This document shows positions 5,233 through 26,785 of a stretch of 64,000 nucleotides of DNA, one piece after another (the stretch's first letter is position 1; the number at the start of each line of letters is the position of its first letter). The notes under the pieces are model-generated. The model did no database searches and was not told where the DNA came from. It was given only the letters and a program-made list of their open reading frames with translations. Source of the stretch: Granulicella sp. (GTDB lineage Bacteria > Acidobacteriota > Terriglobia > Terriglobales > Acidobacteriaceae). Both the position numbers and the translations under genes were made by a program. Location of the stretch: positions 1,137,286 through 1,201,285 of the forward strand of contig OZ255702.1 of NCBI GenBank assembly GCA_965276885.1, given 5' to 3'.

Positions 5233-6753
5233 ATGAAGATGGGCCGCAGGGAATTTGTGAAGGCTGGCGTTGCGGCCGGGCTGGGAGCTGCGGTGCGGCC
5301 GAAGTCGCAGGCGAAGAGACCCAACGTGCTGTATGTGTTCAGCGACCAGCACCGCGCTGCGTCGCTGCCGGGCATGCCTTGCAACGAAGCCGCAGCGCCG
5401 AACATTGCCGCGTTCCGCAGCGCAAATTTTTCCATGGACATGTGCGTGTCTAACTACCCGCTGTGCACGCCGTATCGCGGCATGCTGATGACGGGCAAGT
5501 ATCCACACCAGTCAGGACTGGTGGCGGGCGGCGTTAAGATGAACCCTGACGAGTTCACGCTGACCAAGGCGTTCAAGGCGGCCGGCTACCACACCAGCTA
5601 CATAGGCAAGTGGCACCTGGGCCGCGATTCGCAGTTCGTGCCGCCGGGGCCGCTGCGGTTCGGCATCGACGACTACCTTATCTGGTCGAAAACGGACAGG
5701 CACTACAGTTCCTATACCTTTGATCCTGTGACCGGGCAGAAGCTGACGCCGCCCGGTTGGAACGCTACGGCGATGACTGACCAGGCCATCGCGCTGCTCA
5801 AGGCCAAGCCTGCGGGGCCGGATTCGCAGCCGTGGTTCATGGAGGTCTCGTGGAATCCGCCGCATCCGCCATTCGACCCGCCGGCCGCCGACCAGGCGCC
5901 CTACGCTGGGACGCTGCAGAGGAGGCCGAATGTGAAGATCGGCCGGGGCCCGAAGCCGGTGCAGTCGGACGAGAACTTTCATGCGGCTGCACAGGGCTAC
6001 TTCGGCGGAATCACGGGCGTGGACCTGGAGTTCGCGCGGCTGCTCAAGACGCTCGATGAGATCGGCGCGGCCGGCGACACGATCGTCATCTACACCTCCG
6101 ATCACGGCGAGATGATGGGTTCGCAAGGGCTCATGGGCAAGCGGGTGCCGTTCGAGGAGTCGATCCATGTGCCGTTCCTGGTGCGCTACCCGGGCGTGAC
6201 GGGCAAAGGCGGCAGATCGAAGGCGCTCTTTGCGGCCATCGACATTTATCCCACGGTTTGCGGGCTGGCGGGGCTTCAGGTGCCGAAGCACTGCCAAGGC
6301 CGCGATCTCTCCGGCATCATGCGGGGCGAGGCGGCCGAGGCGGCGAAGATTGTTTTCCTGATGAATACCCACGACACAGCGAACAACCCCTACAACGGAG
6401 ACAAGAACACCACCTACGAGATTCCGAACACCCAGCATACAGAGAAGAACATCCACGCCACAGCCAATGAAACAGACGATGCCGGCGAAGAGGGGAACGC
6501 CGAAGGGAAGGCCGGGGGGAAGACCGGGCCGCCCCAGGGGCCGATTTTCCGCGGCGCACGTACAGATCAATACACCTATGCTGTAAACGAAAATGGCCGG
6601 TGGGTGCTGTATGACAATCTTGCCGATCCGTATCAGCTAAAAAATCTGGTGGAGGATGCCCGCCATAAAGAACGGATGGACGGCTTCGACGCGCAGATCA
6701 AGGCATGGATGCAACACACTGGCGACCCGTTCAGCTACCCGGCGATAGCTTGA
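5233..6753 (+). CDS. Tat-exported sulfatase
   Basis: GRREFVK twin-arginine signal; SDQHR; CTPYRGMLMTG; GKWHLG; SDHGEM. Confidence 0.92.
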   Translation: MKMGRREFVKAGVAAGLGAAVRPKSQAKRPNVLYVFSDQHRAASLPGMPCNEAAAPNIAAFRSANFSMDMCVSNYPLCTPYRGMLMTGKYPHQSGLVAGGVKMNPDEFTLTKAFKAAGYHTSYIGKWHLGRDSQFVPPGPLRFGIDDYLIWSKTDRHYSSYTFDPVTGQKLTPPGWNATAMTDQAIALLKAKPAGPDSQPWFMEVSWNPPHPPFDPPAADQAPYAGTLQRRPNVKIGRGPKPVQSDENFHAAAQGYFGGITGVDLEFARLLKTLDEIGAAGDTIVIYTSDHGEMMGSQGLMGKRVPFEESIHVPFLVRYPGVTGKGGRSKALFAAIDIYPTVCGLAGLQVPKHCQGRDLSGIMRGEAAEAAKIVFLMNTHDTANNPYNGDKNTTYEIPNTQHTEKNIHATANETDDAGEEGNAEGKAGGKTGPPQGPIFRGARTDQYTYAVNENGRWVLYDNLADPYQLKNLVEDARHKERMDGFDAQIKAWMQHTGDPFSYPAIA

Positions 6754-22431: not shown

Positions 22432-22821
22432 CTACAGGGCAAGGATATTCACATTGTAAAGACGAAGCTTCGGGTCTTCCGTGACTAGCCGGAGGTCTTC
22501 GGCAATGGCTTGCGCTGCGATCAGGCGATCGAACGGGTCGCCGTGGTGGAAGGGCAAGACAGCGGAAGCACGGAGATGATCTAAGTCAATGGGCAACAAG
22601 GAGATTCGCGTTTGCCGTAACAGAGTTAAAAGCGAATCAATATTCTCTCCGGGCAGGATAAGCCGGCCTTGAGCCAGCTTAATACTGATCTCCCATAGGG
22701 AGGCGTAGCTGAAATAAATTTCGTTTGCCGGGTCAACGATGATGGCGCCCAGGACAGGCTTTAGCCGTGCATCATGATTCACGGACCATAGGACCACGTG
22801 AGTATCCAGCAGCAATCTCAC
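22432..22821 (-). CDS. vapC: VapC-type PIN-domain toxin
   Basis: LLLDTHV; SLWEISIK; HHGDPFDRLIAAQA; LVTED. Confidence 0.9.
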   Translation of the reverse strand: MRLLLDTHVVLWSVNHDARLKPVLGAIIVDPANEIYFSYASLWEISIKLAQGRLILPGENIDSLLTLLRQTRISLLPIDLDHLRASAVLPFHHGDPFDRLIAAQAIAEDLRLVTEDPKLRLYNVNILAL

Positions 22822-23084
22822 GATTCAGGAGGAAAGAGTTCGCTTTCGTTGAAGAGCTTTGCGATCTCTGCATTCGTCTCTGGCGAATCCCAATCATCGG
22901 CCATCCACATCTTGCCCTTCATCGCTCCAAACAGGCCACTACGATCCGTCGCGATAGCCTCGGGTTTGGAAACGAGCGTTACCGCGAAACCATCTTCGCG
23001 GGTGATCTCGACCTGTTCTCCATGTTCGGTCGCGGCCAGGAGTTCCTGAAGGTGAGTCTGCGCGTAGTCGGCGGTAACGGTCAT
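22818..23084 (-). CDS. Phd/YefM-like antitoxin of the PIN toxin
   Basis: AQTHLQELL...GEQVEITR; G.MKGKMWMADDWD tail; 4-bp overlap with the toxin start. Confidence 0.85.
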   Translation of the reverse strand: MTVTADYAQTHLQELLAATEHGEQVEITREDGFAVTLVSKPEAIATDRSGLFGAMKGKMWMADDWDSPETNAEIAKLFNESELFPPES

Positions 23085-23329
23085 GGATGTAGGGTATGTT
23101 GCGGCTTAGCCAGGGTCAAGCCGGGTTTTCGCTTCGCGCAGGATGATGGCATCTGGCTGGCACTCTCACATCTGCCCCTTCATCGCAAAAGCCCCGATGA
23201 ATGGAACGCCTACGGCCATGAAGGCCCAATCGGTATCACACGTTCTGTCCAGAGACATCGCGAGGACCGGGCCATAGACTGCAGAAGCGCTTTCACCGGG
23301 GCTTCATAGATGCGCGATTGGTCATGCAG

Positions 23330-23390
23330 GGGAGAACACCGGAGTTGCCAAAAGCAACACGGCCCTGCGGGAACAGGGCCGTCATCTCCC
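23330..23390 (+). ncRNA. Structured leader (three-way junction) upstream of a small ORF
   Basis: GGGAGA/TCTCCC closing stem; hairpins GTTGC/GCAAC and ACGGCCCTG/CAGGGCCGT. Function inferred only. Confidence 0.45.
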
Positions 23391-23410
23391 AATGAAAGGA
23401 GGATGGAGCT

Positions 23411-23494
23411 ATGTTGCGTTTGCAATTGCGCTTCAGCCTTGCAATCCGTATACCCTTGCGGTGGATTGCAGCTCTGGTCTACCTACTGAAATAG
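23411..23494 (+). CDS. 27-aa hydrophobic, cationic peptide, type I toxin-like (not in ORF track)
   Basis: AAAGGAGG 8 nt before ATG; MLRLQLRFSLAIRIPLRWIAALVYLLK*. Confidence 0.6.
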   Translation: MLRLQLRFSLAIRIPLRWIAALVYLLK

Positions 23495-23502
23495 ACCAGA
23501 AC

Positions 23503-23536
23503 GGGCTTCCGGTGTATGAAAGCCACCGGAAGTCCC
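23503..23536. terminator. Strong hairpin between the small ORF and the convergent uvrC
   Basis: GGGCTTCCGGTG / CACCGGAAGTCCC: 12-bp stem with one bulge; no clear U tail. Confidence 0.45.
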
Positions 23537-23591
23537 ACCCAGAATAAGCCTTCTCCCTGCGATGTTCAACCAAACTTTCGTAACTCTTCAT

Positions 23592-25682
23592 TCAACTCTG
23601 GAACACCCGCAACACCGGCTGAGATTCGATGGTTGCCGTATCGGGCTGCCGAAAATGCTCCTGAATCTGTCGGGCGACCGAAGCGCTTACCACCGCCGTA
23701 AGCGCGTCGGGGTTGCTCTCCGCCGCCGCCTTCAGAGCGCGCACACTGCCGAAGTGCTCCAGCAGGCGCTGCCGGGTGCGCGGGCCCACGCCGGGTATCT
23801 CGTCAATCTCACTCACGCGATCGCGCATCTCGCGGCGCTTGCGGTGATAGCCGACGGCGAAGCGATGGCTCTCATCGCGAATCTTCTGGATGACATGCAG
23901 CACGGGCGAGCGGCGATCCAGCACCACGGGATCGTCCTCCTGCCCGTAAATGTAGATCACCTCCTCGCGTTTCGCGATCGAGGCCAGGGGTTGCGTGGTG
24001 ATCCCCAGCCCCTCCAGCGCCGCCGCCGCCGCGTGCAGCTGCCCAAGGCCGCCGTCGATCAGCACCAGCGACGGCATCGGCTTTTCATGCTCCTGAAGGC
24101 TCTTGTAGCGCCGGGTGACGATCTCCGCCATCGAGGCAAAATCATCCACGCCGGTAACGGTCTTTACCTGAAACTTGCGGTAATCCGCCTTCTTCATCGC
24201 GCCCTTTTCCCATACCACCATGGACGCCACCGTCTCCGCGCCCTGAATGTGCGAGATATCGAAGCACTCGATGCGCTCCGGCGGCTCGGGCAGGTTCAGG
24301 GCATCGCCGAGCGCCTCGGCCATGGCCTTTGCGCTCGGCTGCAGCACACGAAACCGCTGGTCGTAGCTCTGCTTGGCGTTGGTGCAGACTAAGTCGACAA
24401 GCGACCGCTTATCCCCCCGCTGCGGTGCGGCGATCTCGATCCTGTGACCGCTGCGCTCACGCAGCAGATCGGCAAGAATCGCACGATCCGGAAAATCCAC
24501 CGGCACATAGATGTGCTTGGGCACATAGTTCTGGTCGAGATAAAGCTGCTTCAGCAACGCCGAAAAAAAGGCTGCCGGCGAGAAGCAGGGTTTCACTTCA
24601 GCCGTCGCGGATGCGTCTCCTGCGCAATCCGCCTCAACCCCCAGCTCCGGATCGCCCACTTCAAACGGTGAGGTCAATACGGAGTGCTGTTCGGTTTGCT
24701 CTGTATCCGCGATAATGCCCGGTGCCGAGACGACCGGATTCGGCTCCAGCCGTGGCTCGGCCTCCAAATCCGACGCATCGTCGTCGGCCTCAATCGCAGC
24801 CGTCAATGCATCTGCAAAGTCCGGCAGATCCTCCCAGAAAAGATCGCGCCGGTCGACAATTTTTCCGCCGCGCATATGAAAAAGGTTCACGGCCAGCATG
24901 TCGTTTTCGAAGTGGAAGCCGAACACATCCGCGTCATCGGTTTCGGTTGTGTCGATGCGCTGCCGTTCTCCGGCCTGGTGCACAGTGCTGAGCTGATCGC
25001 GCAGCCGCGCGGCGAGCTCGAACTGCATGTTTTCCGCTGCCGCTCCCATGCGCTCGGTCAGCCGGCCTTCCAACTCTGCGGTCTTGCCGTCGAGGAATAA
25101 CTGCACATCGCGGATCACGGCGCGGTAGTCGTCAACCGCGACCAGACCCTCTACACACGGCCCCAGGCAGCGCTTGATGTAGTACTGCAGGCAGGGACGC
25201 GGATGGTAGCGGCTTAAATCCACTTTGCAACTGGGAATCAGAAAGCTCTTGCGCACTACATCGGCCAGACGGTGGGCCAGATTGCCCGGAAAATAAGGGC
25301 CAAAGTACGCTCCACCATCCTTGCGCAGCCGCCGTGTGACGAAGACTTTGGGATGCTTGTCGCCCAGCGTCAGCTTGACGTACGGGTAAGTCTTGTCATC
25401 GCGCAGAAGGATGTTGAAGCGCGGCTTGCGCTGCTTGATCAGGTTGTTCTCAAGCGCCAGAGCCTCATGCTCATTGGCGACGGTGATGTACTCCAGGTCC
25501 ACAGCCTCGCGCATCAGCGAGCCGGTCTTTGCATTTGCCTGCGAGGCCGCCAGGAAGTACGAACGCACCCGCGAGCGCAGGTTCTTCGCCTTGCCGACGT
25601 AGATGACCTCGCCCTCGGCGTTCTTGTACAGATAGCAGCCGGGGCCCGTGGGCAGCGTGCGGATTTTTTGAAGCAGGTCCAT
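23592..25682 (-). CDS. uvrC: Excinuclease ABC subunit C
   Basis: GIY-YIG start PGCYLYK...YVGKAKNLRSRV; RIECFDISH; DGGLGQ; RDESHRFA; HhH IPGVGP. Start ATG 25682. Confidence 0.96.
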   Translation of the reverse strand: MDLLQKIRTLPTGPGCYLYKNAEGEVIYVGKAKNLRSRVRSYFLAASQANAKTGSLMREAVDLEYITVANEHEALALENNLIKQRKPRFNILLRDDKTYPYVKLTLGDKHPKVFVTRRLRKDGGAYFGPYFPGNLAHRLADVVRKSFLIPSCKVDLSRYHPRPCLQYYIKRCLGPCVEGLVAVDDYRAVIRDVQLFLDGKTAELEGRLTERMGAAAENMQFELAARLRDQLSTVHQAGERQRIDTTETDDADVFGFHFENDMLAVNLFHMRGGKIVDRRDLFWEDLPDFADALTAAIEADDDASDLEAEPRLEPNPVVSAPGIIADTEQTEQHSVLTSPFEVGDPELGVEADCAGDASATAEVKPCFSPAAFFSALLKQLYLDQNYVPKHIYVPVDFPDRAILADLLRERSGHRIEIAAPQRGDKRSLVDLVCTNAKQSYDQRFRVLQPSAKAMAEALGDALNLPEPPERIECFDISHIQGAETVASMVVWEKGAMKKADYRKFQVKTVTGVDDFASMAEIVTRRYKSLQEHEKPMPSLVLIDGGLGQLHAAAAALEGLGITTQPLASIAKREEVIYIYGQEDDPVVLDRRSPVLHVIQKIRDESHRFAVGYHRKRREMRDRVSEIDEIPGVGPRTRQRLLEHFGSVRALKAAAESNPDALTAVVSASVARQIQEHFRQPDTATIESQPVLRVFQS

Positions 25683-25751
25683 GCGGGAAGACGTGTCGCA
25701 AGGGATTAGACGTTTGAGCGCGGGCCGCGATGCATGGGTCTGGTGGGTGGA

Positions 25752-25920
25752 AAAGCGAACGCAAAGGGCGCAAAGGGAAAACGCAGAGGTGCGCAAAGGG
25801 AAACTCCGTGCGCTTTGCATACTCCTCCGTGCGCTTTGCATACTCCTCTGCGTTCTTCGCGTTCATCTTCTGCGCCCTTTGCGTTCGCCTTTGCTGCCCT
25901 TTGCGTTCGCCTTTGCTGCT
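25752..25920. repeat. Palindromic CGCAAAGG/CCTTTGCG repeat tract with internal tandem duplications
   Basis: AACGCAAAGGGCGCAAAGG versus CCCTTTGCGTT; CTCCGTGCGCTTTGCATACTC x2; CCCTTTGCGTTCGCCTTTGCTG x2. Confidence 0.8.
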
Positions 25921-25948
25921 CCTTAAGAACGCGCGATAGCATCGAGCC

Positions 25949-26785
25949 ATGGCCGAACAATACGCAGGAATTGTCCATCAAAAGCAGAGTAGGGCCGCTG
26001 AGGCCGTTGCGGAGGCCGCGGCCATCATGGCGCGGCTGCGCGGTCCCGGTGGCTGTCCGTGGGATCGCGAGCAGACCTTCGACACCATCAAGCGGCACAC
26101 GCTGGAGGAAACCTACGAGGTCTTCGACGCGATCGAACGCCGCGCCTGGCCCGACCTCCGCGACGAACTCGGCGATCTGCTGCTGCAGATCCTCTTCTAC
26201 GCGCAGATGGCCGAAGAGGCCGGACACTTCAGCCTGCGCGACGTCGCTGAGGCGCTCAGCGCCAAGCTGATTCGCCGTCACCCCCACATCTTCGCGGATG
26301 CCGTCGCTCACGACGCCGGCGCGGTGCTGCGCCACTGGGAGCAGATCAAGCGTGAAGAAAAACGTGCGGCAGCCTCGGTGATCGAAGATCAGTCTGCGCT
26401 CGACAGCATCCCGCGCTCGATGCCCGCGATGCTGGAAGCCGCGAAGCTGGGCTCCAAAGCCGCGAAGGCCGGTTTTGATTGGCCGGATGCCGGCGGTCTC
26501 TTCGCAAAACTCGAAGAGGAGACGCAGGAGTTGAAAGCTGAACTCAACGCGGGCGCTCATGACGCCGCGGAAGCCGAGTTCGGCGATCTGCTGTTTACCG
26601 CAATGAATCTTGCCCGTCATCTCGGCATCGACCCGGAATCCGCTTTACGCCGCACAAACGCGAAATTCCGCAGCCGCTACACGATGATGGAGCAGCTGGC
26701 CGGCGGGACAGACGCTTTCGAAGCCGTCCCTTTGGCCGAAAAAGAAGAATTCTGGACGCAAGCGAAGGCTCGGGTGATCCCGTAA
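25949..26785 (+). CDS. mazG: Nucleoside triphosphate pyrophosphohydrolase MazG
   Basis: LRGPGGCPWDREQT; EETYEV; ELGDLLLQ; KLIRRHPHIF; EFGDLLF. Confidence 0.95.
   Translation: MAEQYAGIVHQKQSRAAEAVAEAAAIMARLRGPGGCPWDREQTFDTIKRHTLEETYEVFDAIERRAWPDLRDELGDLLLQILFYAQMAEEAGHFSLRDVAEALSAKLIRRHPHIFADAVAHDAGAVLRHWEQIKREEKRAAASVIEDQSALDSIPRSMPAMLEAAKLGSKAAKAGFDWPDAGGLFAKLEEETQELKAELNAGAHDAAEAEFGDLLFTAMNLARHLGIDPESALRRTNAKFRSRYTMMEQLAGGTDAFEAVPLAEKEEFWTQAKARVIP

Follow-up and report, generated by a model that had tools for sequence, protein, structure and literature searches.

The window analysed here is a stretch of 64,000 nucleotides from Granulicella sp., a member of the Acidobacteriaceae (assembly GCA_965276885.1, contig OZ255702.1, positions 1,137,286 to 1,201,285 of the forward strand). 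A 507-bp intergenic gap within it, bounded by the start of a Phd/YefM-like antitoxin gene on one side and by the stop of uvrC on the other, holds a self-contained module of about 300 bp (23275-23569), which is best explained as carrying two convergent genes, one for a 27-residue peptide and the other for an antisense RNA. It is very probable that the peptide gene is real, that the antisense promoter is conserved and that the mRNA has a covarying fold. On balance the comparisons point to a new family of type I toxin-antitoxin-like modules, a reading that is favoured here with considerable reserve.

The peptide gene

The coding part of the module comprises two elements.

23395-23402, plus strand: Shine-Dalgarno (SD) sequence AAAGGAGG, 8 nt ahead of the ATG at 23411
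23411-23494, plus strand: open reading frame (ORF) of 27 codons, MLRLQLRFSLAIRIPLRWIAALVYLLK, whose SD, start and stop are conserved and which bears a coding signature in its own frame only

The SD, the ORF and the hairpins around them had been described in an earlier reading made from the letters of the window alone (the sequence-only reading), and all are present as it described them. The conservation of ORF and SD across relatives, on which that reading depended, was found within the Acidobacteriaceae by profile and pattern searches. The motif GAAAGGAGG is present in all copies and the start codon lies 7-10 nt past GGAGG; the search pattern demanded RRAGGAGG, and the invariance of the SD in the alignment of 49 sequences (A4) is thus by construction.

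Pairwise differences among 43 distinct intact ORFs were 0.25/0.12/0.43 by codon position, and 0.34/0.18/0.45 in codons 2-10, which lie outside any hairpin. The ratio of nonsynonymous to synonymous changes (pN/pS) was 0.39 in the frame of the ORF, against 0.9 and 1.6 in the other plus-strand frames. Since third codon positions vary most and pN/pS is low in one frame only, the ORF is, judged by its substitution pattern, an unannotated protein-coding gene under purifying selection. Its length is 27 codons in 46 of the 50 intact ORFs and 25, 26 or 28 in the other four. The family has a fixed peptide core, LAIhLPLRWIAALLYL, in which residues L10, P15 and L22 are invariant and F8, R17, W18, A20, A21 and Y24 nearly so. 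The peptide has a net charge of +4 or +5 and a grand average of hydropathy (GRAVY) of about 1.0, and is modelled by AlphaFold as a single plain helix (mean predicted local distance difference test score, pLDDT, 73).

No match to the peptide was identified in Pfam or NCBIfam at E <= 10, and the ten variants looked up, including both of this genome, were absent from a collection of 15 billion proteins. A profile search of 1.84 billion representative proteins gave only 34 matches; among the 19 that were read, 18 were the same small ORF, bare, N-terminally over-extended or frameshifted, and one was an unrelated repeat protein. Neither these searches (Pfam, NCBIfam and the 1.84 billion proteins) nor Rfam linked the module by sequence or profile to an established type I toxin or to a type I antitoxin RNA, the toxins compared including Hok, Ldr, TisB, Ibs, ShoB, Fst, TxpA, BsrG and SymE.

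Distribution of the family

The genome contains a second copy of the module with 76% nucleotide identity, located between a ketopantoate-reductase-like (PanE-like) gene and an ABC-F ATPase gene. The peptide of this copy, MLRINIRFNLAIHLPLRWIAALLYLVR, is identical at 18 of 27 residues, the other changes being conservative, and five codons differ only synonymously. A DNA-level search of 201 genomes of the family found only these two copies, and peptide-profile and pattern searches were therefore needed. Genomes of three further genera of the family each yielded several full-length matches to the profile built from the two peptides, with a maximum of eight in G347, the highest total among the genomes searched. 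On contig 3 of G347, two same-strand copies are located 3.6 kb apart (L108:2767-2809 and 6395-6437). Applied to two phylum-wide samples (401 genomes), the profile gave convincing matches only in the same family.

The pattern scan covered 185,579 species and combined hairpin H2 (described below) with the SD, leaving the ORF out of the pattern. It identified 81 stretches, comprising 62 elements in Acidobacteriaceae (Granulicella, Terriglobus, Edaphobacter, Bryocella and Terracidiphilus) and 19 in other phyla. In all 62 elements this ORF follows 7-10 nt on, either intact or recognisably damaged. The 19 matches in other phyla have no such ORF behind them and were discarded as chance. In metagenome-assembled genomes (MAGs) of Oscillospiraceae (L089, L092, L110 and L122) the pattern fell on a CGGCCCTGC...CAGGGCCG hairpin and SD directly upstream of the uvrC start codon. 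The peptide ORF is absent from these sites, which are unrelated to the module; in these bacteria the uvrC leader may have a conserved hairpin of its own.

Copy number ranges from one to eight per genome and the distribution is patchy. The site of the second copy (PanE-like, module, ABC-F) is common to at least 11 genomes, with flanking proteins 60-97% identical, and the site in the window (vapBC, module, uvrC) is common to two close relatives. The PanE-like and ABC-F genes of two species of the same genus lie about 20-45 nt apart and module-free. A further genome of the genus (G341) presents at this site about 580 bp of unrelated sequence resembling a different small gene (L136:922-1500). In 8 of the 62 copies (13%) the ORF is broken (the lesions are loss of the start codon, frameshifts, an early stop codon and insertions), and the RNA scaffold is still recognisable. 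One of the PanE/ABC-F sites, in an uncultured Acidobacteriaceae MAG (L118:127-440), has its ORF split by an insert of about 38 nt, CCGGGGTCCCCGGCGAACTTGTTCGCTGGGGTGATCTG, the reverse complement of which reads CACCCC-hairpin-GGGGACCCC. A contig (L127) whose record is titled Verrucomicrobia bacterium Tous-C9LFEB also bears an intact module, flanked by a PanE-like and an ABC-F gene. These flanking genes are 65% and 78% identical to those of the present genome, and mis-binning or a wrong label is a more probable explanation of the contig than transfer.

The orientation of the flanking genes is mixed: of those on the left, 15 are on the minus and 12 on the plus strand, and of those on the right, 16 and 12. 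Hence the module is autonomous, being neither leader nor promoter for a downstream gene, and the idea of a leader peptide or attenuator was rejected on the same ground.

Structure of the mRNA

The transcript of the peptide gene comprises the following promoter and fold elements; helix P1 closes the leader, and Ha and H2 are the hairpins within it.

23275-23280, plus strand: TAGACT, -10-like box of the peptide mRNA promoter (TAnnCT in 47 of 54 copies)
23290-23301, plus strand: 5' strand of P1, CUUUCACCGGGG, at the extreme 5' end of the predicted mRNA, pairing with 23387-23398
23310-23343, plus strand: leader junction (AUGCGCGAUUGG ... GCAGGGG ... ACCGGA), near-invariant columns in 49 copies
23344-23358, plus strand: hairpin Ha (GUUGC-CAAAA-GCAAC), 93% paired, with compensatory GUCGC/GCGAC variants
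23359-23382: hairpin H2, ACGGCCCUG/CAGGGCCGU, followed on the minus strand by GUUGCUUUUGG
23387-23398, plus strand: 3' strand of P1, UCCCAAUGAAAG, abutting the SD and overlapping its first G
23440-23447/23463-23470, plus strand: ORF hairpin, TGCAATCC/GGATTGCA, 97% paired
23473-23481/23492-23500, plus strand: stop-codon hairpin, TCTGGTCTA/TAGACCAGA, with TAG (23492-23494) in its 3' arm
23503-23514/23524-23535, plus strand: 3' hairpin with a 12-bp stem and apex GUAUGAAAGCCAC (23512-23525)

A TAnnCT hexamer is found 8-12 nt ahead of the conserved CUUUC and P1 in 47 of the 54 copies, and the mRNA would start at about 23286-23288. The alignment of these copies revealed no clear -35 box for the sense promoter, and DNA further upstream of its -10 box is unrelated between non-syntenic copies.

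Six helices were tested in alignment A4. H2 was part of the search pattern, and its invariance in A4 is by construction and not by selection; its stem also covaries in distant subfamilies found through the peptide (GGCCCCG/CGGGGCC). Overall, 94.7% of the cells of the six helices are paired, and 22 pairs (122 cells) present changes on both sides. None of 500 shuffles reached the observed values, a statistic that overstates independence, many copies being orthologous; slid controls were 30-57% paired. In P1, five of the seven upper pairs have changed on both sides, 91-93% of cells are paired and G-U pairs exceed A-C pairs by 79:23. The corresponding figures are 6 of 10 pairs changed on both sides in the stop-codon hairpin, and 7 of 9 in the 3' hairpin, where 97.7% of cells are paired and G-U to A-C is 35:3. 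In the ORF hairpin, the codons for Ala-Ile-His/Arg pair with those for Arg-Trp-Ile-Ala, and G-U and A-C pairs number 97 and 3. The third base of the Ala codon covaries with that of the Ile codon (A-U 22, G-C 9, G-U 9, C-G 3), and the same bases are therefore selected for both protein and RNA fold. As G-U pairs greatly outnumber A-C pairs, the folded molecule is the sense (plus-strand) RNA.

The whole region also folds far better than expected by chance, with z = -5.9 on the plus strand and -7.6 on the minus strand and none of 200 dinucleotide shuffles as good. The Rfam scan that had been proposed was run on the region and returned no family at gathering score, and none at E <= 10 apart from chance-level fragments. 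Weak matches to SymR (E = 3.2) and BsrG (E = 4.7), far below gathering scores, were rejected as chance.

The antisense promoter and the predicted antisense RNA

A second conserved promoter is located just past the 3' hairpin, on the opposite strand.

23569-23564, minus strand: antisense -35 box TTGAAC, 17 nt from the -10 box
23546-23541, minus strand: antisense -10 box TATTCT (T 54, A 53, T 46, n, C 45, T 53 over 54 copies)
23345-23534, minus strand: predicted antisense RNA of about 190 nt, with the start taken from the -10 box and the end from the terminator-like site at H2

The plus-strand columns A23541, T23545 and A23546, which correspond to T6, A2 and T1 of the -10 box, are invariant or nearly so amid drifting surroundings. 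At 16-18 nt upstream of this box, 51 of the 53 copies that were scored have a TTGnnn or TGGAAA hexamer; the spacer in between drifts. A scan with consensus promoters called nothing, both promoters scoring 8/12 and falling under the threshold, and the alignment-based analysis was used instead. From these columns, the near-consensus sigma-70-type promoter, convergent with the peptide gene, is a strong candidate for the promoter of an antitoxin RNA. The sequence-only reading could not locate the antitoxin RNA, and the promoter at 23569-23541 now supplies a candidate for its origin. The sense promoter looks the weaker of the two.

The predicted antisense RNA would start near 23534, where the 3' hairpin has its foot; it spans that hairpin, the whole ORF and the SD, and folds as a row of stem-loops with the z of -7.6 given above. 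The sole terminator-like site on the minus strand is H2 followed by GUUGCUUUUGG; past the stem, every one of the 54 copies has four to six U among the next 10 nt.

Pairing between the 5' and 3' ends of the mRNA

Two pairings between the ends of the mRNA were compared, one of them proposed previously.

23330-23336 and 23551-23557, plus strand: GGGAGAA and TTCTCCC, the pairing proposed by the sequence-only reading; TTCTCCC is non-conserved and lies inside the spacer of the antisense promoter
23297-23309, plus strand: leader arm CGGGGCUUCAUAG, complementary to the apex of the 3' hairpin, GUAUGAAAGCCAC (23512-23525)

GGGAGAA and TTCTCCC can indeed pair (-15.8 kcal/mol), and the duplex occurs here and in the closest orthologue, but it is not a feature of the family: over 49 copies, cognate duplexes had -10.35 and non-cognate ones -10.44 kcal/mol (permutation p = 0.61). 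The same reading had this pairing compete with a closing stem of the leader at 23330-23335/23385-23390. The family-wide closing helix is P1 and not that stem, which may nevertheless compete with P1 here because P1 has two C.A mismatches in this copy.

A different pairing is the one that co-varies, as measured by duplex energies: that of the leader at 23297-23309 with 23512-23525. Both sides change together in other copies (GGGGUGUCACAG with GGUGACACUC; GAGGCGCCAAAG with GGUUGGCGCC), and cognate duplexes have a mean of -14.0 kcal/mol against -12.0 for non-cognate ones (p < 1e-4). The best downstream partner of the leader is the 3' hairpin in 37 of 49 copies, and the pairing is stabler on the plus strand in 33 copies and on the minus strand in 16 (p = 0.009). 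Counted by fixed alignment columns, it comprises 42 G-U, 35 A-C and 86 other combinations, the loop aligning poorly, and the measure taken instead was the duplex energy of each copy. When distant subfamilies were compared over wide windows, p was 0.07.

The first hairpin of the antisense RNA would be the exact complement of the mRNA 3' hairpin, and the leader arm is therefore nearly identical in sequence to the apical loop of the antisense RNA. Leader arm and antisense RNA would thus compete for the same target loop.

Genomic context

The genes adjoining the module in the window are all on the minus strand.

22432-22821, minus strand: PIN-domain VapC gene, partner of the Phd/YefM-like antitoxin gene
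22818-23084, minus strand: Phd/YefM-like antitoxin gene, left neighbour of the gap that holds the module
23592-25841, minus strand: uvrC, right neighbour of the gap

The VapC and Phd/YefM-like pair does adjoin the module, as had been pointed out, and the adjacency is incidental, the vapBC context being common only to the two closest orthologous loci. The listed ORF of uvrC begins 53 codons ahead of MDLLQKIRTLPTGPGCYLY, its apparent true N-terminus (window 25680-25950). Both the additional codons and the DNA that precedes them include short direct repeats, one frame of which reads AEEYAKRTEEYAKRTE, and which possibly belong to a repeat family of the genome.

Interpretation

A type I toxin-antitoxin-like module is proposed because a tiny ORF with a strong SD, a better-promoted cis-antisense gene, stem-loops with 5'-3' pairing, paralogy, patchiness and inactivation are found together. 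SD/anti-SD pairs, stem-loops at the 5' and 3' ends and 5'-3' long-distance pairing are given as the key marks of type I toxin mRNAs in the T1TAdb paper (PMC8594479), and a narrow, patchy distribution is another mark of such systems (PMC5367252). With respect to a small toxin-type gene (in this class usually of fewer than 60 codons) having its own ribosome-binding site, the coding gene, SD, start and stop were all identified. Type I toxin mRNAs also silence themselves through their folds; here the helices covary and so does a 5'-3' pairing, and sequestration of the SD was unsupported. A hydrophobic peptide that spans the membrane is typical of the class, though not universal in it, and the single predicted helix here is less hydrophobic than the classic toxins. 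The sequence-only reading had already proposed a type I locus, and the coding gene, the covarying mRNA, the antisense promoter and the paralogy agree with it; the particular pairing that it named and its link to VapBC did not hold.

The module would work as follows. A weak-looking promoter with a -10 box only would give an mRNA of about 250 nt with a strong SD and the 27-codon ORF for a helical, cationic peptide. The 5' end of this mRNA would pair with the stretch abutting the SD (P1), the ORF and its stop codon would be held in hairpins, and the leader segment would pair with the apex of the 3' hairpin. The minus-strand promoter would give an antisense RNA fully complementary to the mRNA, probably extending across the ORF and SD to the terminator-like hairpin. 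This RNA, in excess, would bind the mRNA with a loop-to-loop start at the 3' hairpin, leading to a block of translation and/or cleavage of the duplex. The folds of the mRNA would keep the message untranslated and conceal the loop first recognised by the antisense RNA. Were the supply of antisense RNA to fall, or the mRNA to be processed, the peptide would be made and the cell would be harmed or arrested, most likely at the membrane. The scheme presumes an antisense RNA that exists and ends as predicted, the succession of steps just described and a peptide that is toxic.

A more specific version, which is tentative and rather doubtful, is that the leader is a built-in mimic of the antitoxin, so that the mRNA conceals the loop recognised by the antisense RNA until it is refolded or processed and only then can be either translated or targeted, and that the module is the first type I family of the Acidobacteriota. 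It would then represent an independently arisen, hok-like delayed activation. A peptide with Pro15, Arg17 and Trp18 might also act on a specific partner rather than by simple poration of the membrane.

Several observations weigh against a type I module. P1 covers only the first G of the SD, and sequestration of the SD is not borne out: candidate anti-SD CUUC(C) motifs are without covariation, and RNAalifold pairs GGAG with CUUC of codons 7-8, also with no covariation. The mRNA is without a canonical terminator and the antisense terminator is imperfect, being U-rich with an interrupted U run. The best 18-residue Kyte-Doolittle mean of the peptide is about 1.5, compared with 2.0-2.6 for TisB, Ibs, ShoB, Ldr, DinQ and Fst (yardstick sequences that may be inexact). 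Residue-level conservation is unusually strong (P15, R17, W18), and synteny across genera is seen at some loci; either trait would equally suit a small protein that is useful to the cell and has a specific partner. The orthology of many copies, noted with the shuffle statistics, belongs here too.

These points lead to the alternative that survives best, a non-toxic small protein, for instance a regulator that associates with the membrane or binds a partner. A cis-antisense RNA and the structure of the mRNA would then tune its synthesis, in the same architecture but with no logic of poison and antidote. This alternative is judged unlikely. Charge, moderate hydrophobicity, residue conservation and old syntenic loci suit a harmless protein equally well; the conservation is strong and specific (L10, P15, R17, W18, A20, A21, L22 and Y24, with pN/pS 0.39), hydrophobicity is moderate only, two loci are syntenic and vertically inherited across genera, and the model is a plain helix with mean pLDDT 73. 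Multi-copy paralogues, a patchy presence within one genus and ORF-specific lesions in 13% of copies are, however, typical of toxin modules, and the layered silencing by P1, long-distance pairing and a stronger-looking antisense promoter would be costly for a harmless peptide.

It is improbable that the leader, with P1, Ha, H2 and its invariant junction, acts as a riboswitch-like sensor of a ligand or protein that gates translation of the peptide, with the antisense promoter as a secondary element. A multi-helix junction with near-invariant unpaired stretches (GAUGCGCGAUUGG and GCAGGGG) and a closing helix that abuts the SD would suit such a sensor, as would an alternative pairing, seen by eye only, of GCAGGG of the junction with CCCUGC of H2. 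The leader, however, has no Rfam family even at E = 10 and precedes this one peptide only, downstream genes not being consistently co-directional; the long-distance pairing explains part of its conservation, and H2 and Ha are explained as the antisense terminator. A sensing leader would in any case be compatible with a type I module rather than exclusive of it. The riboswitch-controlled peptide offered earlier as a second possibility has only the conserved leader in its favour, with no Rfam match and no regulated downstream gene, and was set aside.

There is very little likelihood that the functional product is a structured non-coding RNA of the minus strand, the plus-strand ORF being a by-product. 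The minus strand does fold better (z = -7.6) and has the better promoter and the only terminator-like site. Nevertheless, the coding pattern is specific to the plus frame, even in codons 2-10 outside the hairpins; SD, start, stop and length are all conserved, G-U pairs favour the plus strand (97:3 and 35:3), and P1 and the long-distance pairing fall outside the predicted antisense RNA. Least probable of all is a mobile non-autonomous repeat of the type of miniature inverted-repeat transposable elements (MITE) or repetitive extragenic palindromes (REP), whose inverted repeats would pass for long-distance pairing and whose ORF and promoters would be fortuitous: presence and absence at the same site within one genus and inverted repeats near both ends would fit it, but copies number only 1-8 per genome and bear a coding signature, conservation reaches past the inverted repeats to the promoter boxes at either side, synteny of loci extends across genera with flanking proteins 60-97% identical, and the edges of the element showed neither target-site duplications nor terminal repeats.

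Novelty and significance

Published type I systems come only from Proteobacteria, Firmicutes and Tenericutes, with one 2025 candidate from Cyanobacteria (PMC12390103), and this narrow range has been attributed to search bias (PMC12390103, PMC5367252). For Acidobacteria, the literature search found no paper that describes a module of this kind. The module represents a well-populated orphan family in a major soil phylum, and its roughly 60 natural variants are enough to read which base pairs, promoter bases and residues are under selection. The family is a test case for the co-evolution of antisense control and mRNA folding, for the annotation of genes of fewer than 30 codons, given that ten variants are absent from the 15-billion-protein collection, and for the role of such modules in slow-growing soil bacteria. 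If the peptide is not a toxin, the gene would still encode a new conserved small protein with unusually elaborate RNA control.

Comparison with known systems

The ibs/Sib modules of Escherichia coli share with the present one a tiny ORF (19 codons in ibs against 27), the presence of several copies on the chromosome, each self-contained in an intergenic gap, and an antisense RNA directly opposite that covers the whole ORF and ribosome-binding site, as predicted here. They differ in phylum and have no sequence similarity to it; Ibs is extremely hydrophobic, whereas the peptide here is cationic and moderately hydrophobic, and the mRNA here has a long conserved structured leader and 5'-3' pairing.

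The hok/Sok system of plasmid R1 and enterobacterial chromosomes also has a compact toxin mRNA whose 5' region pairs with the 3' end. This fold-back keeps the full-length hok mRNA inert to ribosomes and antisense RNA until it is processed, and the pairing identified here could act likewise. Sok, however, is short and opposite the 5' leader, whereas the antisense promoter here is at the 3' end and convergent. Hok has about 50 residues and a clear transmembrane helix, and the present module shows no homology to the system and has no overlapping mok-like frame.

In aapA1/IsoA1 of Helicobacter pylori the peptide is also of about 30 residues and rich in basic ones, with many chromosomal copies, and 5'-3' long-distance pairing is present; successive structures of aapA1 hide the SD, whereas SD sequestration is unsupported here. 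IsoA1 overlaps the 5' untranslated region and is divergent, and there is no homology. In txpA/RatA and bsrG/SR4 of Bacillus subtilis, the genes are convergent and overlap at their 3' ends, and pairing is thought to start at the loops of the 3' hairpins. Their antisense RNAs, unlike the one predicted here, overlap the 3' part only and act mainly via RNase III decay, and the toxins are hydrophobic and of 38-59 residues.

By sequence, the module belongs to none of the ibs/Sib, hok/Sok, aapA1/IsoA1, txpA/RatA and bsrG/SR4 families. By analogy, its layout appears closest to that of ibs/Sib and the logic of its mRNA to that of hok/Sok and aapA1/IsoA1, with a convergence like that of txpA/RatA and bsrG/SR4.

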